DNA of 64,000 nt from an uncultured Clostridia bacterium (GCA_964345635.1 CAYFRM010000075.1:11531-75530); one strand, 5' to 3'. Counted from the stretch's first letter, positions 53,275 through 62,634 are shown. Notes: generated from the sequence alone by a model not told the origin. Translations and numbers: made by a program.

Positions 53275-53355
53275 ATGGCGGCTAAGAAGAGAAAGAAAGC
53301 CAAGAAGAAGAAAAAGGCTAAGAAGAAGAAAAAGAGGAAAAAAAGAGTGTGTTAA
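53275..53355 (+). CDS. Lysine-rich micro-ORF (26 aa, MAAKKRKKAKKKKKAKKKKKRKKRVC)
   Basis: Strong SD GGGGGGAGGTG 7 nt upstream of ATG; A-rich so could be chance; see findings. Confidence 0.3.
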   Translation: MAAKKRKKAKKKKKAKKKKKRKKRVC

Positions 53356-54226: not shown

Positions 54227-54946
54227 GTGAATGAACAATTGAATAAATTAATTGCGTTACAGGAAGTGGATTTAGTCCTTGACCGCATTCAAAACGAAAT
54301 GGACGAGATTCCCAAAGAAATTGACAGATTGAACAGGGATTTAGAAGGAAGCGTAGCGTCGCTTGACGAAATGAAAAAGAAGATGACGGAGCTGCAACTG
54401 GACAGGAAAGACAAAGAACTGGAACTCAAGAACAAAGAGGAAGAACTTAAGAAACATCAGACCGAACTGTTTTCAATAAAGACAAACGAAGCCTATACCG
54501 CCTTACTTAAGGAAATCGAGGAAGGCAAGAAAGAAAAAGACGGTATTGAAGATAAAGTCCTTGCGGCACTGGAGCAAGAGGATGCTCTACTTGCTGAAGG
54601 GAAGATAAAAAAGGAAGAACTGGCCAGGAAGAAAGAAGCAGTTGCTAAACAGCAAAAGGAACTGGAGGACAAATTGCAGCGTTTGGGACAGAATCTGCAG
54701 GAAATCCAATCGGAACAGAAACAGAAAATAGCTGACATTAAACCGGAGATATTTGAGCGGTACAAGAGAATAAGAGAAAAAAAAGACGGCGTGGCAATTG
54801 TTCCGGTAGCTCATGGATTTTGCGGAGGTTGTAACATTGCCTTGCCGCCGCAGCTCATAAATGATGTTTTGAAAGGGGAAGATCTGGTAGCTTGTAGAAA
54901 TTGTTTGAGAATACTATATCTGAAAGAAAAAAATGAAGAGAGCTGA
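54227..54946 (+). CDS. COG1579/DUF164-type coiled-coil protein with C-terminal C4 zinc ribbon
   Basis: 239 aa; long heptad-rich region then 'CGGCNIALPPQ...CRNC'. Confidence 0.65.
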   Translation: MNEQLNKLIALQEVDLVLDRIQNEMDEIPKEIDRLNRDLEGSVASLDEMKKKMTELQLDRKDKELELKNKEEELKKHQTELFSIKTNEAYTALLKEIEEGKKEKDGIEDKVLAALEQEDALLAEGKIKKEELARKKEAVAKQQKELEDKLQRLGQNLQEIQSEQKQKIADIKPEIFERYKRIREKKDGVAIVPVAHGFCGGCNIALPPQLINDVLKGEDLVACRNCLRILYLKEKNEES

Positions 54947-55505
54947 GTTAGAAAAGGAAACGTGCAGGATATTGAACATTCTTGCTGAGGAAAAATCTTT
55001 TCGTGCCGTGAAGGAGAGACTTCCTGGGCTTACTGACAGAGAAATATGGCAAGTTATCTCCATTGCAGCTTCTAGGTTAAAGCGATTACCGGTAGAGCGG
55101 AGATACGGAAGTCTCTGGGTATACATTGACGGAGCTGCAGAGCCCAATCCGGGACCCTCCGGTATCGGGATAGTTATTTATGATGAGAAAAGAAAAAAAA
55201 TTAAGGAAGTAAGAAAATATATTGGCCTGGCAACGAACAACGTGGCTGAGTACAAGGCCCTGGTTCAGGGATTGCAGGAGAGTAAAAAGCTTTCGGCGCA
55301 AAATGTTAGTATATTGAGCGATTCTCAATTGTTGATCAACCAGATGAACGGAAGGTTTCGCATAAACAATAAACACCTGCTGAGACTATTTCAACAGGCA
55401 AAGAATCTTGAAAGTAAGTTTGATAAGGTCATTTATCGCGCGATAAGCAGAAATAATAACAAGCTAGCTGACCAACTTGCAAATTTGGCAATAAAAAAAG
55501 CGTAG
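54933..55505 (+). CDS. rnhA: Ribonuclease HI (RNase H type 1) with about 60-aa N-terminal extension
   Basis: 'VYIDGAAEPNPGPSGIGIVI', 'NNVAEYKALVQGL', 'SDSQLLINQM' RNase HI catalytic D/E/D motifs. Confidence 0.75.
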   Translation: MKRAELEKETCRILNILAEEKSFRAVKERLPGLTDREIWQVISIAASRLKRLPVERRYGSLWVYIDGAAEPNPGPSGIGIVIYDEKRKKIKEVRKYIGLATNNVAEYKALVQGLQESKKLSAQNVSILSDSQLLINQMNGRFRINNKHLLRLFQQAKNLESKFDKVIYRAISRNNNKLADQLANLAIKKA

Positions 55506-55564
55506 CTTTCATTTATGGGGTCGTTTGAATTGTAGTCGCTCCCATTCAAGGGAGCGCATATATA

Positions 55565-55860
55565 GGCTTGAAGTGAACCGGATGGTTGCTCCGATGTTTA
55601 TCGGAGAGGAAAGTCCGAACTCCACAGGGCGGAGTGTTCCGTGTAAACGGAAGGGGAGTAATCCTACGGAAAGTGGCACAGAAACCAGGTACAGGTAATG
55701 CTGTAGTGAAAAGGCTAAACCCCACTCGGAGCAAGACCGAATAGCAGAGAAGAGACGGCCCGTCTCGTTACTACTCTACGGGTTGGTCGCTCAGATAAAT
55801 AACCATCGTTCCGATTTATAGTCGGAATACAGGATTCGGCTTACAGGTTCATTTCAAGCC
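55565..55860 (+). ncRNA. rnpB: RNase P RNA (bacterial type A), compact (about 296 nt)
   Basis: P1 pairing GGCTTGAAGTGAACC/GGTTCATTTCAAGCC; P4 'GAGGAAAGTCCGAACTCCACAGGGC'; 'GTGAAAAGGCTAAACCCCAC', 'AATAG', 3' 'ACAGGATTCGGCTTACAG' match universally conserved regions; followed by T-run. Confidence 0.8.
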
Positions 55861-55954
55861 TTTTTTATTATTTACCAATATTGACTTTTTTTTCAAAAAG
55901 ATATAAGATAAAAAACGACAAATCAAAAAAGTTTTGTTTGATAAGGAAGTGAAT

Positions 55955-56446
55955 ATGGAAGCGATTAAAGTATTGAAGTCAAGAAGGAGTAAGAGAAAAT
56001 TTTTATCCAGACCTGTTGCCCAAAAAGTAGTGGAGGATATCATCGATTGTGGTCGGCTGGCTCCCAGCGCAAACAACATACAGCCGGTAGAGTTCATTGT
56101 GGTCACCAGCAAGGAAATCAGAAAGCAAATAGCAGAAACGACCGATTATGGCAGGTTTATTGCCGAGGCGCCTGTGTGCATCGCTGTTTTCTCTCGCCAG
56201 ACGAAATACTACCTGGAAGATGGCTCGGCAGCCTCGGAGAATATACTTCTGGCTGCTCACGCGCATGGATTGGGAGCCTGCTGGGTGGCGGGGGACAAAA
56301 AATCCTATGCCGAGAAAGTTCGCGAATTACTGGGAGTACCTCGAGATTTTAAACTGATTACTCTCATTCCCCTGGGCTATAGCGAGCAGAATCCGAAGCC
56401 TGCGAAGAAAAAACTGAAAGATGTTCTCCACTGGGAGAAATATTGA
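55955..56446 (+). CDS. Nitroreductase-family protein (FMN-dependent)
   Basis: Start 'MEAIKVLKSRRSKRKF'; 'PSANNIQPVEFIVV' and C-terminal motifs. Confidence 0.8.
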   Translation: MEAIKVLKSRRSKRKFLSRPVAQKVVEDIIDCGRLAPSANNIQPVEFIVVTSKEIRKQIAETTDYGRFIAEAPVCIAVFSRQTKYYLEDGSAASENILLAAHAHGLGACWVAGDKKSYAEKVRELLGVPRDFKLITLIPLGYSEQNPKPAKKKLKDVLHWEKY

Positions 56447-56462: not shown

Positions 56463-57470
56463 ATGCTCATTGTAGGAATTGATGAGAACGGATTAGGTTT
56501 TCGGAATCAAAGAATGCTGGGGCCTCTGGTAGTCACCGCCTCTGCTTTCAGAATAGATAGAGGTTATGACTGCAAAAGAGATTTTTTCTGGAACGAGCTT
56601 AAACAAGTAGTTTCCAGAGAAAAAACCGATAAGCAAAGCCTTATTGTCTGTGATAGTAAAGAGCTTTTCCAGAGCAACCACCGGAAGACTTATGAATTAG
56701 CAGAGTCCACGGTACTTGCTTTCTATTCTCTTTTGAATAGAAGGATGCCCCGGGATTTCGACGAAGATTTTTTCCCGGAAATAATTCTTCCCGGCCATTC
56801 TGTTTTCAGGGAGTGCCCTGTAGATTGGGAAGGTTCCCTCTGTGGAATGGGAACTCCTTATAGTCTTCCCGCCTGGAAAGCAGAAATTCATTCTGTAGAA
56901 GATGTCTCGGAAAAACTCAGGAAGGAATTAAGGAAAAAGAGAATTGAATTTATTTTTTGGAAAAGCAGAATATTTTGTCCTTCCACTCTCAATAAGGCGG
57001 GAGGAAAAAATCTGGACAAGTACTGGCTGGAGGTCGAAGCGATAGCTGATTTTATTACTATATTTCTGGAAAATTACAGAGAAGAAGAAGTTTCCTTTTT
57101 CTCAGGGAAGATAGATAGCTGGGGAGAGAAGAAAATTCTAAGTTGCCTGGCGAGCAGGTTTGCAGTTCAGCCTTGCCCCGGGGAGGCGGGAATCGATATT
57201 TTTGCCGTTTCCCATAAAGGAAAGAAAGTTAAACTCCATTTTATCAGGTCTGGCGATAAGTTCATCTTTCCCATTTCTCTTTCCTCAATTTTTGGCAAGT
57301 ACATCAGAGAAATATTTGTCAAACGGATAAATGAATTCTTTCAGAAGTTCGATAGTTCCTTGGATTGGTGTGGAGGATACAGGCAAGGTGGGAAATTCGA
57401 TGGCTTCCTGAAAAGAGCCATTGAAATAGCTACTATGGAAAAGATTCCCCGAGAATGCTTATTAAGGTAG
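56463..57470 (+). CDS. RNase HII-like protein with large internal insertion and C-terminal extension
   Basis: 'VGIDENGLG..GPLVV' (RNase HII DE motif), 'CDSKELF' (DSK motif), distal 'KIDSWGEKKILSCLAS' (like GDS..SAAS motif); about 150 aa inserted between catalytic segments. Confidence 0.5.
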   Translation: MLIVGIDENGLGFRNQRMLGPLVVTASAFRIDRGYDCKRDFFWNELKQVVSREKTDKQSLIVCDSKELFQSNHRKTYELAESTVLAFYSLLNRRMPRDFDEDFFPEIILPGHSVFRECPVDWEGSLCGMGTPYSLPAWKAEIHSVEDVSEKLRKELRKKRIEFIFWKSRIFCPSTLNKAGGKNLDKYWLEVEAIADFITIFLENYREEEVSFFSGKIDSWGEKKILSCLASRFAVQPCPGEAGIDIFAVSHKGKKVKLHFIRSGDKFIFPISLSSIFGKYIREIFVKRINEFFQKFDSSLDWCGGYRQGGKFDGFLKRAIEIATMEKIPRECLLR

Positions 57471-57481
57471 AAAGGCGAATT

Positions 57482-57955
57482 ATGAGAGCTTTTCTGGACA
57501 TTGAGACATCATTTGAAGGAGAGATAACCGTTCTGGGAATATATCGTGGGGACGGCACGATAATTCAGTTAGTGGGAAAAGAGATTACCAGGTCGAACTT
57601 GCTTAAGAGCCTCACGGGAACAACTACCATTTACACTTACAACGGGAGCAGGTTCGATCTCCCCATCATAAAAGAGAAACTGAACGTAGATCTGGATGAC
57701 TTTTTTATAACCTATGACCTGATGTACGACTGCTGGGAAAGGAATCTTTACGGCGGACTGAAGAAAGTGGAACAGATGCTGGGAATCAAAAGGCGCCTGA
57801 AAGAAGTAAACGGCTGGGTGGCTATGGAACTATGGTACCAATACGAAGAAGAAAATAACAAGAAAGCACTACAGGTGTTACTGGAATATAATAAAGAAGA
57901 CATTGTTAATCTTCCTGTGTTAATGGAAAAACTCGGGAAAAGGGGTGGTGACTAA
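57482..57955 (+). CDS. RNase H-fold 3'-5' exonuclease-like protein (YprB / RNase_H_2-like)
   Basis: 'FLDIETS' ExoI-like motif, 'YNGSRFDLPII' ExoII-like, 'YNKEDIVNL' ExoIII-like; alternative upstream ATG 57455. Confidence 0.5.
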   Translation: MRAFLDIETSFEGEITVLGIYRGDGTIIQLVGKEITRSNLLKSLTGTTTIYTYNGSRFDLPIIKEKLNVDLDDFFITYDLMYDCWERNLYGGLKKVEQMLGIKRRLKEVNGWVAMELWYQYEEENNKKALQVLLEYNKEDIVNLPVLMEKLGKRGGD

Positions 57956-57956
57956 T

Positions 57957-58016
57957 ATGCCAGGGAAAGTGCCGGCCAAGAGGGAAAAAAAGAAGCCAAA
58001 AAAGAAGAAAAAGTAA
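57957..58016 (+). CDS. Lysine-rich micro-ORF (19 aa, MPGKVPAKREKKKPKKKKK)
   Basis: SD GGTGGTGA upstream; wedged with 1-nt and 0-nt spacing between exonuclease stop and radical SAM start. Confidence 0.3.
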   Translation: MPGKVPAKREKKKPKKKKK

Positions 58017-59180
58017 ATGAACATCTCCATCGGTGGGAAAGCCTATGAGGTTATTACACAACCACAGAAGCATGTACTTTTGCCCACCAGGAAAGAACTT
58101 CACGGATGGTGGCCCGGAAAGAGAGAATGCACTTCTGAGAGAATGCTCATCAATCCCTACAATGGCTGCGGGATAGGATGCTTTTTCTGTTACTCATTGG
58201 CATTTCCCGGCCACTTTCAGACCTTCCGAAAAGAAAATGTAATTATTGTTGCCAGAGACTTCGACAAAGTCGTTTCCGACCAACTCGATTCCATAGGCGT
58301 TGCTTCCTGCGGTTATCTCTCCCCGGTAACGGACCCATTTCAGCCAATAAATAACCTTTACCATCTTTCGGAAAAAATAATCAGAGTATTTGTAGAAAGA
58401 AATATTCCCATAGAATTTATTACCAAGGCTGAGATTCCTGAAGAAGCGCTCCAGTTAATAAAAAAGCAAAAACATTCATTTGGTCAGGTATCTTTTCTAA
58501 CCATAAATGAGAATTTAAGAAAAGTTTTGGTAACCCGAGGGGCTTCCAATAGCGTGCTATTTGGGAACTTGGAAAGAATGGGAAAGAAAGCAATTCATGC
58601 CGTATGTCGGATAGACCCCATATTCCCTTATCTTACGGATAAAAAAGAAAATTTTCGACAACTGATTAAGAGGGCAAGAGATTCGGGAGCTAAACACGTG
58701 ATTGCCAGTGTGCTTGACATTCCTCTTAAGATTCACAAGGAAATTCTCCGGGTGCTAAATTCTTATTTCGGGCCGGGAATAGAGTTTGACTACAGAAAAT
58801 TATACGGGGAAAATATTGATGGATATCTAAACGCAAAGGTCGATTATCGCAAGAAAATATTCGACATTTTACGAAACATCTGCGAGAATCTTGATATGAC
58901 CTTTGCTTTATGCATGGAATACGAGCTAATTGACGGCGAACCCAGGGGGCTAAATCGAGAGTTCACCAATGCAACGAATTGTGAAGGCATTGACATACCT
59001 GTTTACAGGAGAGAAAAAGGGAAGTTTGTTCCCGCGGCAGATTGTCAGGGAGACTGCCTCAATTGCGCCGAAGGAAAATGTGGAGTAAAGGATTTGGCCA
59101 TGAAAAGAAAAGGGTCAAAAAAGGATTGGCGGCTCAAAGATTATCGGCGCTGGTCAAAAGAACTCAAAAGAGCGGGGTGA
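58017..59180 (+). CDS. Radical SAM protein, SPL/'DNA repair photolyase' (COG1533) type
   Basis: 387 aa; 'CGIGCFFC' CxxxCxxC cluster motif near N-terminus; no SPASM tail. Confidence 0.7.
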   Translation: MNISIGGKAYEVITQPQKHVLLPTRKELHGWWPGKRECTSERMLINPYNGCGIGCFFCYSLAFPGHFQTFRKENVIIVARDFDKVVSDQLDSIGVASCGYLSPVTDPFQPINNLYHLSEKIIRVFVERNIPIEFITKAEIPEEALQLIKKQKHSFGQVSFLTINENLRKVLVTRGASNSVLFGNLERMGKKAIHAVCRIDPIFPYLTDKKENFRQLIKRARDSGAKHVIASVLDIPLKIHKEILRVLNSYFGPGIEFDYRKLYGENIDGYLNAKVDYRKKIFDILRNICENLDMTFALCMEYELIDGEPRGLNREFTNATNCEGIDIPVYRREKGKFVPAADCQGDCLNCAEGKCGVKDLAMKRKGSKKDWRLKDYRRWSKELKRAG

Positions 59181-59200
59181 GTGCGTAAAAGGAGGCGTTA

Positions 59201-59506
59201 TTGGAAATAAGAGAATTTCAGAATTTAATGCACAAGATTTACTATTCCCGGGATGCGAAAAGAGGGCTGGGCAGGACTTTCGTGTGGTTTATTGAAGAAG
59301 TGGGAGAGTTAGCCAAGCTGATTCGTGAAGGCAAAAGAGACAATTTTAAGGAAGAAGTCGGCGACGTATTTGCCTGGTTCCTGAGTTTAGCAAACCTCCT
59401 AAACGTAGATGTGGAAAAAGAAATCGAAAAGTATAAACGGGGCTGTCCCAAGTGCAAAAAAACTCCCTGCCAGTGTACTTATGACTACCCCAGCTTCCAA
59501 TTCTAG
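59201..59506 (+). CDS. MazG-like nucleotide pyrophosphohydrolase domain protein with C-terminal Cys4 zinc ribbon
   Basis: 101 aa; 'EEVGELAKLIRE' and 'EEVGDVFAWFLSLANLL' MazG EExxE/D motifs; 'GCPKCKKTPCQC'. Confidence 0.65.
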   Translation: MEIREFQNLMHKIYYSRDAKRGLGRTFVWFIEEVGELAKLIREGKRDNFKEEVGDVFAWFLSLANLLNVDVEKEIEKYKRGCPKCKKTPCQCTYDYPSFQF

Positions 59507-59690
59507 TACTGCGAAGCAGGCAGTAGCAGGCCAGTAGTCGCAGGCTCAAGCCTGCGTAGCTTCCCGGAAAAGCAGGATCCCTCCCTTCAACGCCCACAAA
59601 ATATTGCCGAAAATACTCAAGTAGACAGTTTTAATTGACAAATTTTGGTTCTTTTGCTATTCTATGTTATAGCGACGATAGGAGGAACGA

Positions 59691-60377
59691 ATGGAAGAAA
59701 AAGAAAGGGCTATCCGGCCGGTAGAAAAGGCTTATATTCTTTTGATAGCCATTTTTGTCGGCGGGCTGGTCATTGCCGGTGTACTGGCGAGCAAGATCGT
59801 AAATGTGGCGGGCCTCATAGTTCCGGGAGGAGTTCTCGCCTACTCCATAACTTTCCCTATTACTGATGTAATTTGTGAAGTTTGGGGCAAAAAGCGAGGA
59901 AAATACGTGGTTTTTAGCGGGTTCATTAGTCTCCTGGTAGCCCTGGGACTGATTAGACTTACTCTTATCGTTCCCCAAGCTCCTTTCTGGACCGGGGAAG
60001 AAGCTTTTGCCACTATTTTGGGTAGCACTTCGCGCATTATCGTTGCCAGTTTCATCGCCTATCTGGTAAGCCAGTATCACGACGTCTGGGCATTCCATTT
60101 CTGGCGCAAGGTTACAAAAGGGAAATATCTCTGGCTAAGAAACAATGCTTCCACCTTTGTCTCTCAGTTCATCGATACGGCTGTTTTCATTACCATTGCT
60201 TTTTACGGCGTAATGCCGGTTTTTACGTTAATCAAAGGTCAATATGTCGTCAAACTCCTGATTGCACTACTGGATACGCCCCTTGTCTACTTTGGCGTAT
60301 GGCTGGTAAGAAGGGGAGAAAGAAATGAAGATAGGTATAGTGGGAGTTCCTCCCCAGGAAATTTTGGACAAATATAA
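59691..60377 (+). CDS. Queuosine-precursor transporter (YhhQ/DUF165 family)
   Basis: 228 aa; 'ASFIAYLVSQYHDVWAFHFWRK' and 'NNASTFVSQFIDTAVFITIAFYG' match YhhQ conserved blocks. Confidence 0.75.
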   Translation: MEEKERAIRPVEKAYILLIAIFVGGLVIAGVLASKIVNVAGLIVPGGVLAYSITFPITDVICEVWGKKRGKYVVFSGFISLLVALGLIRLTLIVPQAPFWTGEEAFATILGSTSRIIVASFIAYLVSQYHDVWAFHFWRKVTKGKYLWLRNNASTFVSQFIDTAVFITIAFYGVMPVFTLIKGQYVVKLLIALLDTPLVYFGVWLVRRGERNEDRYSGSSSPGNFGQI

Positions 60378-61059
60378 GGGAAATGATTTCATAGATTTAG
60401 ACACTCTTTTCGATTTTACCGATAACAGTAAAGCCGAAATCTATCTACCGAAGATATACTGCTCCACGATTAAAAGTATCGTAGCCAATGCTTTAACCAT
60501 AAAATTGGACCTTATCATTTTTGATAACGGCTATAGCAAGTGTGACAATGGCAGATTTGTTAGTGAAATTCTCAAGCGTGAGCTTGATGTGCCTATAATT
60601 ACCACTCAAAATAACGCTACTCGCAGGCACCCTCAACCGATATGCGAAAGTGGTCTGGCACTGAGAAAGAAATTTGACTTGATAGTGGACAGTGTCGTCA
60701 AGGACGTTGATAAGTCAAAATTGAAACGCGCCGAGCCGGATTATGGCTTCTGGGGAGTTCCTCCCAATGATTTCAGCATACTTGATCTGTTTCCTGAGAA
60801 AACCCACGTTTTCGGGTGGGCAAGGTGTATGGAGGCAAAAGTTCCCGCGGACCTGGAATTGGAAATGTTGGTAAGGGAGGACCTGCCCACGGTATTCTAC
60901 GCCCAGGCTTTCTGCAGCAAGAACTCCTTAGCCAGGTATCTGGCAAAGAAACATAACGGACTCTATGTTGAGGTTGATGACGTTCTTGATAATTCCGTAA
61001 AACGCAAAATCGAAGCTTACCTCTTACTAAACAGGAAAAAGGGACAGGTACTTTTTTGA
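60325..61059 (+). CDS. Hypothetical protein (possibly partner/DUF2229-like component of the downstream ATPase)
   Basis: 244 aa; GGGGAG RBS; overlaps yhhQ end by 53 nt; C-terminus encodes repeat-C motif. Confidence 0.4.
   Translation: MKIGIVGVPPQEILDKYKGNDFIDLDTLFDFTDNSKAEIYLPKIYCSTIKSIVANALTIKLDLIIFDNGYSKCDNGRFVSEILKRELDVPIITTQNNATRRHPQPICESGLALRKKFDLIVDSVVKDVDKSKLKRAEPDYGFWGVPPNDFSILDLFPEKTHVFGWARCMEAKVPADLELEMLVREDLPTVFYAQAFCSKNSLARYLAKKHNGLYVEVDDVLDNSVKRKIEAYLLLNRKKGQVLF
61036..61057 (+). repeat. Repeat family C, solo copy C4 forming the last 7 codons and stop of CDS 60325-61059
   Basis: AAAAAGGGACAGGTACTTTTTTGA encodes ..KKGQVLF*. Confidence 0.65.
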
Positions 61060-61073
61060 CGGAGTGAGGCGAT

Positions 61074-61709
61074 ATGCTTTTAGGCGACGTAGGAACCAGT
61101 TATAGCAAGATATTGGATGTAGAGAAAGGAGAATATAAAGTCATTAACACCCTGGACTTGCTCAAAAACGACATCAGGTTCGATATAGCCTGCGGGCATA
61201 ACGCGAAATTGAAAGCGGACAGGGTAGTTAACGAGCTGGTCGCTCTGGAAAAAGGCAGCAGGAAATTGATCGGAGACGGGAATTTTCTGGTGGTGGATGT
61301 GGGAAGTAGAGACATCAAATATGTAAAAATGAAAGATAATAAATATGAAGAGATGGATTGGAACGCTCTCTGTGGGGCGACTTTGGGATTTTCCATCGAA
61401 CTTCTGGAGAACCATTTTAACGTAAAGACATCAGAGCTAAAGAAAACATCCGAATCTCTGGGGGTCACTTGCGGAGTTCTGGGTATGGCCAAGATTTTTG
61501 ATAAGATTTCACAGGGGTGCGAGATAAGTAATGTTCTGGCAAGCTTTGTCAAAGGGATAGCGGATAACGTCTATAGATTCATAAACAAACCCGAATTTTT
61601 CTATTTGAGTGGTGGGTTGTGTAACAATATTCTATTTATGAATAGTTTTCCCTGTAAGATTGAGCCCTTAGGAAGGTTTGTTCTTTTGGAAGGACTGAGA
61701 AAGCTTTAA
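61074..61709 (+). CDS. ASKHA-superfamily ATPase (BadF/BadG/BcrA/BcrD 'CoA-enzyme activase'-like or CoaX-like)
   Basis: 211 aa; N-terminal 'LLGDVGTSYSKI' phosphate-1 motif, 'LVVDVGSRDIKY' second D-x-G motif. Confidence 0.45.
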   Translation: MLLGDVGTSYSKILDVEKGEYKVINTLDLLKNDIRFDIACGHNAKLKADRVVNELVALEKGSRKLIGDGNFLVVDVGSRDIKYVKMKDNKYEEMDWNALCGATLGFSIELLENHFNVKTSELKKTSESLGVTCGVLGMAKIFDKISQGCEISNVLASFVKGIADNVYRFINKPEFFYLSGGLCNNILFMNSFPCKIEPLGRFVLLEGLRKL

Positions 61710-61728: not shown

Positions 61729-62634
61729 ATGCGTTTTGGATTTCACATCTGGATCAGTGAAGGATTCTCCAGAGTTCCTGAACTGGCCCGAAGGAGGAGA
61801 GCCAGGACAATCCAGTTTTTTTCTCGCAACCCCAGAGCATGGGTTTTTTCTCCTGTCGGTGAAGAGGAAGTAAGAAAATTCCGTACCGGAGTAAAAACGC
61901 TGGGAATTAGGCCCTTGTTCGTCCATATGCCCTATCTTCCAAACTTATCGTCTTCCCGGCAGGACTTTTATATCAAATCAATCGATGCACTGAGGAGAGA
62001 ACTGGAAAGAGCAGAAATACTGGGCGCGCCTTTTCTAATTACCCATATGGGAAGCCGTGGGGAAGCAAGTGAAGCAGAGTCTATAGAGAAATTGATTGCA
62101 GCAATAAACTATTCCCTGGAGAAAATCCGGAATAGAGTATCTATAGTTGTGGAGAATACTGCAGGACAGGGGAGTCAGATCGGATATAAATTTTCACAGA
62201 TTAAGACCGTCATTGATGGAGTGGCAGATAAAGAAAGAATCGGGGTCTGCCTGGACACAGCGCATGCGTTTCAGGCGGGATACGACCTTTCCCGGAGAGA
62301 CGGACTGGAAAGAACGCTGGAAGAATTCGAACGATTAATTGGATTTGACAAGTTGAAACTTCTTCATCTCAACGATTCCAAGACTCCTGTTGGCTCCCGG
62401 GTAGACAGGCATTGGCACATTGGTGAAGGATTCATAGGTAGAGAAGGGTTCAGAAATATCGTAAACCACCCGACATTATCCCGTTTTCCGGGAATTATGG
62501 AGACACCCCATAAGAAAGAAGAGGACGACGTTAGAAATATGTCTGAAATAGAAAGTCTTGTAATCCCTCGCCTCAGGCCTTCGGAAAAGCGCGAGGAAGA
62601 AAAAATGAGTGACTGTTTGTCACAAGGAGAATGA
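61729..62634 (+). CDS. nfo: Endonuclease IV (AP endonuclease family 2)
   Basis: 301 aa; 'FLITHMGS', 'VENTAGQGSQIG', 'GVCLDTAHAF', 'LHLNDSK' Nfo metal-binding motifs. Confidence 0.85.
   Translation: MRFGFHIWISEGFSRVPELARRRRARTIQFFSRNPRAWVFSPVGEEEVRKFRTGVKTLGIRPLFVHMPYLPNLSSSRQDFYIKSIDALRRELERAEILGAPFLITHMGSRGEASEAESIEKLIAAINYSLEKIRNRVSIVVENTAGQGSQIGYKFSQIKTVIDGVADKERIGVCLDTAHAFQAGYDLSRRDGLERTLEEFERLIGFDKLKLLHLNDSKTPVGSRVDRHWHIGEGFIGREGFRNIVNHPTLSRFPGIMETPHKKEEDDVRNMSEIESLVIPRLRPSEKREEEKMSDCLSQGE

Follow-up and report, generated by a model that had tools for sequence, protein, structure and literature searches.

A probable lineage-specific run of stand-alone genome-maintenance genes in an uncultured Clostridia bacterium

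We find that five closely packed genes in a 64,000-nt stretch of DNA from an uncultured Clostridia bacterium (GCA_964345635.1 CAYFRM010000075.1:11531-75530; hereafter the window) are probably a lineage-specific, co-transcribed run of stand-alone genome-maintenance genes and not a dedicated multi-component system. The five ORFs, at 56463-59506, encode an RNase HII-like protein, a YprB-like exonuclease, a lysine-rich micro-protein, a COG1533-type radical SAM enzyme and a small MazG-like protein. The family of each gene is widespread and is found on its own elsewhere, and the five genes occur together in one lineage alone, a picture that fits separate genome-maintenance genes in an ordinary local run. 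The four protein family assignments of the original prediction (RNase HII fold, YprB/RNase_H_2, COG1533/SPL-like, and MazG with a Cys4 motif) all hold; its proposal of a conserved repair or nucleotide-modification pathway does not, since the five genes co-occur in a single lineage whose flanking genes are equally well kept. A repair theme remains, in that the radical SAM gene adjoins repair-type genes in other phyla. Being local synteny of known kinds of genes, the run is of little import as a five-gene system.

The original prediction described tightly packed and partly overlapping ORFs. Five ORFs are indeed present, with spacings of 11, 1, 0 and 20 nt; the overlap at the exonuclease gene falls away, since its start is more likely ATG 57482, which leaves an 11-nt gap. 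A nitroreductase-family gene (55934..56446, + strand; 170 aa; PF00881, E 5.5e-27) ends 16 nt before the RNase HII-like gene starts; judged by spacing, it lies in the same tight run, as it does in all lineage relatives (loci L004-L007, L009, L010, L092, L093, L097, L098 and others). In the interval from the RNase P RNA to the nitroreductase gene, a consensus scan identified a promoter-like site TTGACT-17-TAAGAT (55881..55909, + strand) whose 9/12 matches weakly suggest a possible start of the transcription unit. A second such site, TTGACA-17-TATTCT with a TG (59635..59663, + strand; 10/12 matches in the consensus scan), sits in the 184-nt gap preceding yhhQ and probably marks the downstream boundary of the unit. 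The genes from the nitroreductase through MazG (~55.9-59.5 kb) are probably one transcript. The common orientation of the five ORFs, named in the original description of the module, carries no weight: across 51-64 kb every family-assigned ORF lies close to the next and on the + strand, and 63 of the 64 one-kb bins show positive GC skew. The surroundings are housekeeping-like, as had been noted: RNase HI, RNase P RNA, the nitroreductase and YhhQ are nearby, with RNase HI 1 kb upstream and an AP endonuclease 2 kb downstream of the five genes. A check for a genomic island was negative, as GC content (0.41-0.46) equals that of the rest of the window and no tRNA was found at the boundaries.

All five genes are found together only in the window's lineage (orthologues at >= 57% identity), where their order is held in ~20 loci, down to 57% identity. 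However, the lineage flanks (DUF4416, nitroreductases, CdsZ-like, RNase HI, HGD-D-like, activase-like and AP_endonuc_2) are equally syntenic, so within-lineage synteny is not specific to the five. Gene content between the exonuclease and MazG genes also varies inside the lineage. In most relatives, a gene with HhH motifs lies between the COG1533 radical SAM and MazG genes and scores 337 bits against the TIGR03916 cutoff of 343.5. This second radical SAM gene resembles TIGR03916/COG4277, the putative DNA repair "rSAM linked to UDG", and differs from that system in falling just under the cutoff and in having no TIGR03915 or UDG partner beside it in these loci. Both radical SAM genes are present in L098, L101-L107, L109, L121 and L133, the COG1533 gene alone in L091, L092, L097 and the window (the TIGR03916-like gene being absent from all 64 kb), and the TIGR03916-like gene alone in L093 and L095. 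Outside the lineage, we sampled the neighbourhoods of ~75 radical SAM, 59 MazG, 6 RNase HII-like and 3 exonuclease loci, the last two samples being small. No RNase HII-like or YprB neighbour was detected at the ~75 radical SAM loci by tblastn, an A2 profile or jackhmmer, and none of the partners occurs at the 59 MazG-Zn loci. Likewise, unrelated genes surround five RNase HII-like homologues (6 loci) and the YprB homologues of 3 loci. From all four sides, then, the gene-neighbourhood search proposed with the original prediction speaks against it: the partners are not adjacent in the independent genomes sampled. A partial order of radical SAM, radical SAM-HhH and MazG-Zn genes is also found in two unrelated genomes (L033, a member of the Latescibacterota, and L034).

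The first of the five genes (56463..57470, + strand) encodes a 335-aa protein with an RNase H fold of type-2 topology, and belongs to a Cys4 family of at least 1,042 clusters. It falls below the cutoffs of PF01351 (19.5 vs 25.8 bits) and of the NCBIfam models NF000595 (15 vs 167) and TIGR00729 (14 vs 123). The conserved residues are D7, E8, D64-S65-K66, E81, D265, K279, R282, E283, G305-Y306 and R335, together with four family-specific cysteines (C118, C127, C172 and C332). Like RNase HII and RNase HIII (1io2 from T. kodakarensis, 1i39 from A. fulgidus and 2d0a, Bst-RNase HIII), the protein has GIDE (D7, E8), DSK(K)L and a "kaD...AASIxAK..RE/D" segment with D265 at the fourth catalytic Asp, and Y306 corresponds to the Tyr of GSGY. 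The original prediction read the motifs of this protein partly wrongly: DE and DSK stand, and the distal "DS..SCLAS" is not conserved; the conserved distal motif reads D265...SLSSIFGKYIRE...GGY306. G305-Y306, which aligns to the GSGY of Af RNase HII, is invariant in sets of 61 and 46 sequences. The DSK at 64-66 is the ordinary N-proximal DSK(K)L motif, which canonical enzymes also carry ~40 residues past DE.

The canonical RNase HII active site consists of four carboxylates (DEDD/DEDE), and the central Arg of its GRG motif serves in junction sensing (PMC13492167). In the alignment, D7, E8 and D265 occupy the positions of carboxylates one, two and four, the D265 position being D/E in 61/61 sequences. 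At the expected site of the third catalytic Asp no conserved acidic residue was found, the candidate strand ends being C172 (100% Cys) or G215. When the family profile was compared with E. coli RnhB by hhalign, both in default and in forced global mode, the N-terminal third alone was aligned, so this Asp is not mappable by sequence. In place of GRG the window protein has G10-L11-G12, with G10 and G12 invariant and the central residue L, F or Y, never Arg, among the sequences listed. The protein thus differs from RNase HII in its length (335 aa vs ~200, with extra segments at ~108-141 and ~173-253 suggested by secondary structure), its four family-specific cysteines, its G-L/F/Y-G motif and the want of a recognisable third catalytic Asp, and from RNase HIII in having no N-terminal domain of that type. 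A canonical rnhB was not found in the window or in any of the sampled loci, and literature searches for a Cys or Fe-S variant of RNase HII found nothing. By analogy with its family, the protein may incise the backbone at an RNA/DNA junction or at some related feature, and its two insertions and C-terminus could form a Cys4 metal site (Zn or Fe-S). This RNase HII-fold family is large and unannotated, carries four conserved cysteines, and shows neither the GRG Arg nor a recognisable third catalytic Asp; type-2 RNases H could have in it a new functional class.

The second gene (57482..57955, + strand) encodes a 157-aa exonuclease. An alternative upstream ATG at 57455 would give 166 aa, and ATG 57482 is the more likely start because database entry P0199 starts there and homologues begin MKAYLDIETS. 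The assignment to the YprB RNase_H_2 family, with DEDD-like ExoI/II/III motifs, is borne out by PF13482 (E 9.5e-34; 117 bits vs a cutoff of 22; profile positions 1-164 of 165) and by a weak, significant match of residues 32-149 to the nearest solved structure, MrfB/YprB (8un9, E 1.2e-4). The motifs DIE (6-8), NGSRFD (54-59) and YNKED (136-140) are kept in homologues, which are found at 55-60% identity in Dehalococcoidia, Bathyarchaeia and Deltaproteobacteria. In Bacillus subtilis, MrfB (YprB) is a DEDDh exonuclease of mitomycin-C repair (PDB 8un9; PMC11194089). The window protein shares with it the PF13482 DnaQ-like exonuclease core and ExoI/II/III-type motifs; unlike MrfB, it is a stand-alone protein of ~157 aa without an additional domain, and its ExoIII motif, YNKED, has Tyr where the MrfB alignment shows His, which suggests a DEDDy-like enzyme. 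Such a minimal DEDDy exonuclease would trim 3' ends. For the MrfA/YprA helicase, no helicase ORF was found at 52-64 kb or beside the homologues in L087-L089. A radical SAM gene convergent with the Deltaproteobacterial YprB homologue (L088) is not homologous to that of the window. A further difference from MrfB is the coupled polylysine micro-ORF downstream of the window exonuclease gene, for which no counterpart was seen after the homologues in other phyla.

This micro-ORF (57957..58016, + strand) encodes the 19-aa polybasic protein MPGKVPAKREKKKPKKKKK. Its ATG starts one nt past the exonuclease stop codon, its TAA stop abuts ATG 58017 of the radical SAM gene, and an SD-like GGTGGTGA is located within the 3' end of the exonuclease gene. 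The micro-ORF is present in every lineage locus that fits the search pattern (23 loci and the window), and 17 nucleotide versions of it occur among them. Variable sites number 5/2/13 at the three codon positions, and pairwise codon differences comprise 566 synonymous vs 191 non-synonymous, a pattern that clearly points to coding selection on a micro-protein of 17-21 residues. The poly-Lys ORF described as abutting the radical SAM start is thus real and conserved, and its partner is the exonuclease gene and not the radical SAM gene. The distance to the next gene ranges from -4 to ~310 nt across lineage loci (in the relatives closest to the window, 0 or -4 nt from the radical SAM gene), and the ORF is kept where the COG1533 gene is missing (L093, L095); we therefore rejected a role as leader peptide for the radical SAM gene. 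We likewise rejected an origin as a C-terminal tail split off from YprB, as other YprB homologues lack a K-rich tail and no K-rich ORF follows them (L087-L089). The micro-protein, probably translationally coupled to the exonuclease gene, may act as a nucleic-acid-binding polycation, and it adds to the poorly charted bacterial micro-proteome.

The radical SAM gene (58017..59180, + strand) encodes a 387-aa COG1533-type, SPL-like enzyme with the sequence CGIGCFFC. Its CX3CX2C motif (C51/C55/C58), its SPL-like fold and partial matches to the PA0069 and Rv2578c models agree with the COG1533/SPL-type assignment made originally. As these matches lie far below the NCBIfam cutoffs (75.8 vs 360 bits for PA0069; 51.7 vs 430 bits for Rv2578c), the enzyme is, judged by its sequence, a separate COG1533 subfamily from both. 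A C-terminal set of cysteines (C322, C343, C347, C350 and C355) is invariant; SPL is not known to have such a cluster. The CX3CX2C motif is shared with SplB (PDB 4fhc), PA0069 and Rv2578c. Structural alignment to SPL gave 10% identity and a score only 1.2 Z units higher than for generic radical SAM enzymes, and the family profile has no sequence-level match to any solved structure in the PDB. Orthology to SplB, including the catalytic Cys/Tyr H-atom relay, is not seen at the sequence level and, unlike SplB, the enzyme comes from organisms that are not known spore formers. Members of the subfamily from at least ten phylum-level groups share 50-70% identity. Outside the lineage, its neighbours include endonuclease V (10 loci), MPG (7), DUF763 with HhH (5), NUDIX (5), RmuC (5) and a TIGR03916-like radical SAM gene (4), for a repair-type total of ~35/75. 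SOS regulation of COG1533 members is documented in several phyla (PMC4951493), as is control by LexA of COG1533 and COG4277 genes (PMC4951493, PMC8565304). As an SPL-like member of its family, the enzyme would direct a 5'-deoxyadenosyl radical at a DNA lesion, and the endonuclease V and MPG neighbours make the question of what non-SPL COG1533 enzymes repair more testable.

The last gene (59201..59506, + strand; TTG start) begins 20 nt past the radical SAM gene and encodes a 101-aa protein predicted to combine a MazG-like NTP pyrophosphohydrolase with a Cys4 ribbon. Matches to PF03819 (E 7e-11; 42.6 bits vs a cutoff of 22) and to SSO3215 (1vmg, E 2.5e-19, residues 1-77), with four invariant cysteines, confirm that description. 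The EExxE...ExxD motif (E32, E33, E36, E52, D55) and the C-terminal CxxC-x4-CxC knuckle (C82, C85, C90, C92) do not vary among the 8 sequences compared, the most distant at 60% identity. The acidic motif is that of small SSO3215-type MazG proteins (1vmg; MazG/MazZ all-alpha NTP pyrophosphohydrolases); the difference is the knuckle, which lies past residue 77, where the aligned region of 1vmg stops. Its family suggests hydrolysis of non-canonical (d)NTPs. An identity as HisE was not adopted, as PRA-PH reaches an E of just 0.022 and hisF is adjacent in 4 loci alone.

Could the five genes nonetheless form a true lineage-specific repair pathway? From one operon, nicking at a lesion by the RNase HII-fold protein would be followed by resection, with the exonuclease helped by the polylysine peptide, by radical SAM reversal or processing of a radical-type or purine lesion, and by MazG pool cleaning. 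The 0-20 nt spacing with promoter-like sites at the two ends only, the nucleic-acid or nucleotide enzymes encoded throughout, the order held in ~20 lineage loci down to 57% identity, the BER enzymes beside the radical SAM gene in other phyla and the partial order in L033 and L034 would all fit. However, unrelated flanking genes are conserved equally well, one or other radical SAM gene is lost while the remainder is kept, and from four vantage points the partners are not retained in any other phylum, and we consider such a pathway unlikely. The same lack of retention elsewhere would suit chance adjacency in a compact one-strand genome with tight packing everywhere, as would the close + strand ORFs of 51-64 kb and the positive GC skew in 63/64 bins. 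Chance adjacency of this kind, with no functional meaning and a coincidental nucleic-acid theme, seems improbable to us: five consecutive such enzymes with an AP endonuclease and RNase HI nearby would be an odd coincidence, and the same radical SAM family lies beside other repair genes in ~35/75 independent loci.

MazG-like and exonuclease components occur in some defence systems, and the original prediction kept open an anti-phage locus acting by MazG-like nucleotide depletion and nucleases. The YprA-family context (10.1101/2025.09.15.676423) and phrog matches for three proteins agree with this, but all four proteins match 0 PADLOC-DB families at E<=0.1, relatives of the radical SAM family were not found in IMG/VR, no YprA/MrfA helicase, integrase or toxin gene was found nearby, and GC is native with stable synteny to housekeeping flanks; we regard defence as very improbable. 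Least probable of all is a queuosine/7-deazaguanine-linked nucleotide or DNA modification via the YhhQ transporter. Deazapurine synthesis makes use of radical SAM chemistry, and YhhQ (TIGR00697, E 3e-55) is encoded 184 nt downstream. However, yhhQ has its own promoter-like site in the consensus scan, is absent in relatives that keep the other genes (L098, L102-L104, L106, L109, L121), and outside the lineage adjoins 1 of ~75 radical SAM loci (L012; ~5.5 kb away in L029). Homologues of QueC/D/E, Tgt and Dpd were not found.

We thus favour a run of separate genome-maintenance genes. The 0-20 nt spacing and the micro-ORF coupling (0 or -4 nt) fit coordinated expression, and functional cooperation within the lineage is possible. 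The most ambitious version, which we hold to be doubtful at best, is an oxygen-independent lesion repair route in an anaerobe-like lineage. Here the nick would be made by an RNase HII-fold nuclease whose active site is remodelled and whose Cys4 site may hold Fe-S; the minimal DEDDy exonuclease, tethered to DNA by the trans-acting polylysine micro-protein, would resect, and processing of the lesion would fall to the SPL-like enzyme. The lesion might, for instance, be a radical-derived or a deaminated or alkylated purine lesion, an idea prompted by the recurrence of endonuclease V and MPG beside the radical SAM gene elsewhere. Separately, and just as doubtfully, the Cys4 family might constitute a third, unrecognised class of type-2 RNase H, which would then have a different substrate. 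As an observation in its own right, and one that runs against the view of separate genes, each of the five products works on nucleic acids or nucleotides, a more thematic set than random adjacency would give.

The five open reading frames lie on the plus strand exactly where the original prediction had placed them: an RNase HII-like ORF of 335 aa (56463-57470), an exonuclease ORF first described as 166 aa (57455-57955), a 19-aa micro-ORF, MPGKVPAKREKKKPKKKKK (57957-58016) with a TAA stop directly followed by the next ATG, a 387-aa radical SAM ORF with the motif CGIGCFFC (58017-59180), and a 101-aa MazG-like ORF with a TTG start (59201-59506). The packing is tight as described, but the reported overlap of the exonuclease ORF becomes an 11-nt gap after the RNase HII-like gene if translation starts at the ATG at 57482; this start, giving 157 aa, is more probable because the protein-database form has 157 aa and homologues begin with MKAYLDIETS. 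A nitroreductase gene (55934-56446, plus strand) also belongs to the tight run, as it ends only 16 nt upstream of the RNase HII-like ORF. Shared orientation, part of the original description of a module, is uninformative because the family-assigned ORFs between 51 and 64 kb all lie on the plus strand and 63 of the window's 64 one-kb bins have a positive GC skew. The run is probably co-transcribed; tentatively, its limits would be a promoter-like site at 55881 and the gap that precedes yhhQ. A GC-rich hairpin, CGCAGGC-TCAA-GCCTGCG (59539-59556, plus strand), lies 33 nt past the MazG stop and, having no T tract, was not flagged by the terminator scan. Directly upstream (54227-55859, plus strand) are a CdsZ/CT398-like zinc-ribbon coiled-coil gene, an RVT_3-type RNase HI with an N-terminal extension of about 60 aa, and RNase P RNA (RF00010, 167.7 bits); the CdsZ-like and RNase HI pair recurs in one fetched homologous locus (L051). 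Downstream, 60325-61709 encodes a 244-aa protein with a weak resemblance to HGD-D and a 211-aa protein resembling acyl-CoA-dehydratase activases; next comes an endonuclease IV-like AP_endonuc_2 gene at 61729-62634. All three genes are on the plus strand and syntenic in the lineage.

We examined co-conservation from the RNase HII-like, radical SAM, MazG-like and YprB (exonuclease) genes, using homologous loci fetched from other genomes and metagenomes (L numbers). In close relatives of the RNase HII-like gene (L004-L006, 57-67% identity) gene order is kept, and so are unrelated flanks (DUF4416, two nitroreductases, RNase HI and AP endonuclease), while five distant homologues have unrelated neighbours. 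We searched 80 genome loci of the radical SAM gene by tblastn, by jackhmmer and with an RNase HII-like profile. Genes of the RNase HII-like and YprB types adjoin it only in L007-L011, which belong to the window's own lineage, and unbiased ORF clustering of these 80 loci found no universal neighbour. Of 80 metagenome loci with the MazG-like gene, the 59 outside the lineage have no partner gene and no dominant neighbour; three distant YprB homologues adjoin MurJ, unrelated radical SAM genes or SbcCD. Even inside the lineage the content varies. In most of its loci a further gene, for a TIGR03916-like radical SAM/HhH protein (337 bits; cutoff 343.5), lies between the COG1533 radical SAM gene and MazG (L007:9172-10341 and equivalents). 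This gene is missing from that position in the window (59180/59201) and its closest relatives L091, L092 and L097, and is absent throughout the 64-kb window; L093 and L095 carry it and lack the COG1533 gene, so that the two radical SAM genes show reciprocal presence and absence within one lineage. Because co-conservation is confined to close relatives, the five-gene arrangement is lineage synteny rather than a conserved system. The original prediction of a module therefore stands for the ORFs, their families and the proposed fold of the 335-aa protein, but not for co-conservation beyond the lineage.

As a system, then, the run is ordinary. On the reading that we consider probable, several mutually independent genome-maintenance genes have come together in this lineage as a single run, probably transcribed as one unit. 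It would combine a nuclease with the RNase HII fold, a 3'-5' exonuclease, a radical SAM enzyme of the SPL-like type and a house-cleaning MazG, with RNase HI on its upstream side and AP endonuclease on its downstream side. That these genes form a truly cooperative, lineage-specific pathway we regard as improbable. A role in anti-phage defence, which had been left possible, is unlikely: none of the four proteins has a match among the PADLOC models, no relatives of the radical SAM family were found in IMG/VR, the GC content of the region is native, and the locus has neither an integrase nor a helicase, nor a tRNA at its boundaries. Also unlikely is a modification pathway linked to yhhQ, since yhhQ is set off from the MazG-like gene by 184 nt holding the best promoter-like site of the region, and many relatives without yhhQ keep the remaining genes. 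In addition to gathered maintenance genes, the locus yields three by-products of value: a Cys4 RNase HII-fold family, a COG1533 subfamily and a polylysine micro-protein.

For the 335-aa protein, RNase HII matches are all sub-threshold when it is searched alone, while a profile built from 61 homologues finds archaeal RNase HII with E 8e-12. Its confident AlphaFold model (pLDDT 91.2, pTM 0.92) superposes on several type-2 RNase H structures, and the RNase HII-fold call was thus right. The motif reading needs correction: the DSK at 64-66 is not a distal catalytic motif but the DSK(K)L motif usual near the N-terminus. Towards the C-terminus the conserved block is D265...SLSSIFGKYIRE283...GGY306, which aligns to 'kaD...AASIIAKVERE...GSGY' of RNase HII. 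Scoring conservation in 61 close-to-distant and 46 very diverse members, we find D7, E8, D64/S65/K66, E81, D265 (D/E), K279, R282, E283, G305, Y306 and R335 to be invariant or nearly so, and C118, C127, C172 and C332 also conserved. Canonical RNase HII lacks these four cysteines. Of two defining RNase HII features, the GRG junction-sensing motif and the Tyr of GSGY (PMC13492167), the first is replaced by G-L/F/Y-G and the second is retained. Searching the 61 + 46 members for the third catalytic carboxylate gave no conserved acidic residue, and hhalign aligned the N-terminal third only of the family profile. In the model, the strand after the long helix (161-171) terminates at invariant C172 and a second candidate strand (210-215) at G215, which is part of a conserved CGK(I/V)GG motif, and we infer that the third-carboxylate position may lie at one of these two strand ends. 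The family is large, with at least 1,042 clusters at 50% identity that an exhaustive profile search (E<=1e-30) matched over their full length.

The COG1533/SPL-like assignment of the radical SAM protein was correct. It matches phrog_9252 'DNA repair photolyase', the COG1533 models PA0069 and Rv2578c match it only partially, and no relative was found among solved structures at the sequence level. This subfamily is of interest for its high conservation and its repair-gene neighbours. Its C-terminal Cys set is invariant, and homologues of 50-70% identity occur in Aerophobetes, Elusimicrobia, Omnitrophota, Zixibacteria, Gemmatimonadota, Eisenbacteria, Latescibacterota, Caldisericota and an archaeon. 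In other phyla its neighbours are enriched for repair genes, in about 35 of 75 loci that are not phylogenetically independent. Endonuclease V is directly downstream in 10 loci (L050, L054, L058, L060, L061, L066-L068, L070, L073) and MPG (AAG; 3-methyladenine/hypoxanthine glycosylase) is adjacent in 7 (L017, L019, L020, L027, L035, L044, L056). Hypoxanthine or damaged purines are the targets of both enzymes, which may hint at what the radical SAM enzyme acts on. DUF763 with HhH, NUDIX and RmuC genes each occur in 5 loci, and a TIGR03916-like radical SAM gene in 4 loci outside the window's lineage. COG1533 'splB' and, separately, the COG4277-UDG operon have been reported as LexA/SOS-regulated in several phyla (PMC4951493, PMC8565304).

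The 101-aa protein is, as proposed, MazG-like with a Cys4 knuckle: it is an SSO3215-type MazG (1vmg, E 2.5e-19), and its EExxE...ExxD residues and CxxC-x4-CxC knuckle are invariant. Directly upstream of distant homologues (~52-55% identity) in L131, L136, L143 and L145 lies a gene whose product we take, from its sequence, to be HisF. The protein from the window reaches the PRA-PH (HisE) model only marginally (E 0.022), and a HisE-like role for some family members is conceivable.

The exonuclease was correctly assigned to the YprB family, matching PF13482 over its full length (E 9.5e-34). Among solved structures, B. subtilis MrfB/YprB (8un9; PMC11194089) is the closest to it. The protein is a minimal form (~157 aa), and homologues at 55-60% identity are widespread (Dehalococcoidia, Bathyarchaeia, Deltaproteobacteria). 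Searching every fetched locus for its pattern, we located the polylysine micro-ORF in 23 loci besides the window, all of the same lineage, as 17 distinct nucleotide versions encoding 17-21 residues; exonuclease homologues outside the lineage have neither a K-rich tail nor such a micro-ORF. An SD-like GGTGGTGA closely precedes it, codon positions 1/2/3 hold 5/2/13 variable sites, and pairwise codon differences are 566 synonymous versus 191 non-synonymous. These differences and the lineage conservation show that the ORF did not arise by chance in an A-rich stretch between genes. Nor does it encode a leader peptide of the radical SAM gene, because L093 and L095 retain the micro-ORF without the COG1533 gene and the next gene starts anywhere from -4 to ~310 nt after it. 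Since one nucleotide always separates the exonuclease stop codon from its ATG, we conclude that the micro-ORF travels with the exonuclease gene; it is a real ORF, as predicted, and a conserved one, but its partner is not the radical SAM gene it abuts. Our guess is that the micro-protein acts in trans as a nucleic-acid-binding polycation. A second lysine-rich micro-ORF, MAAKKRKKAKKKKKAKKKKKRKKRVC (26 aa; 53275-53355, plus strand), with a strong SD, GGGGGGAGGTGAA, sits between tRNA-Val and a nitroreductase-like gene and is kept in L004, L005, L007, L009 and L010 (16-26 aa, always Cys-terminated), which suggests that the lineage encodes several polybasic micro-peptides. The spacer between the first micro-ORF and the radical SAM gene is a variable hotspot of 0 to ~310 nt, zero in the window; in L011 (1375-1685) it holds GTAGTGTAGGGCTTTATGCCCGT twice in the same orientation, a repeat that might mark a small inserted element.
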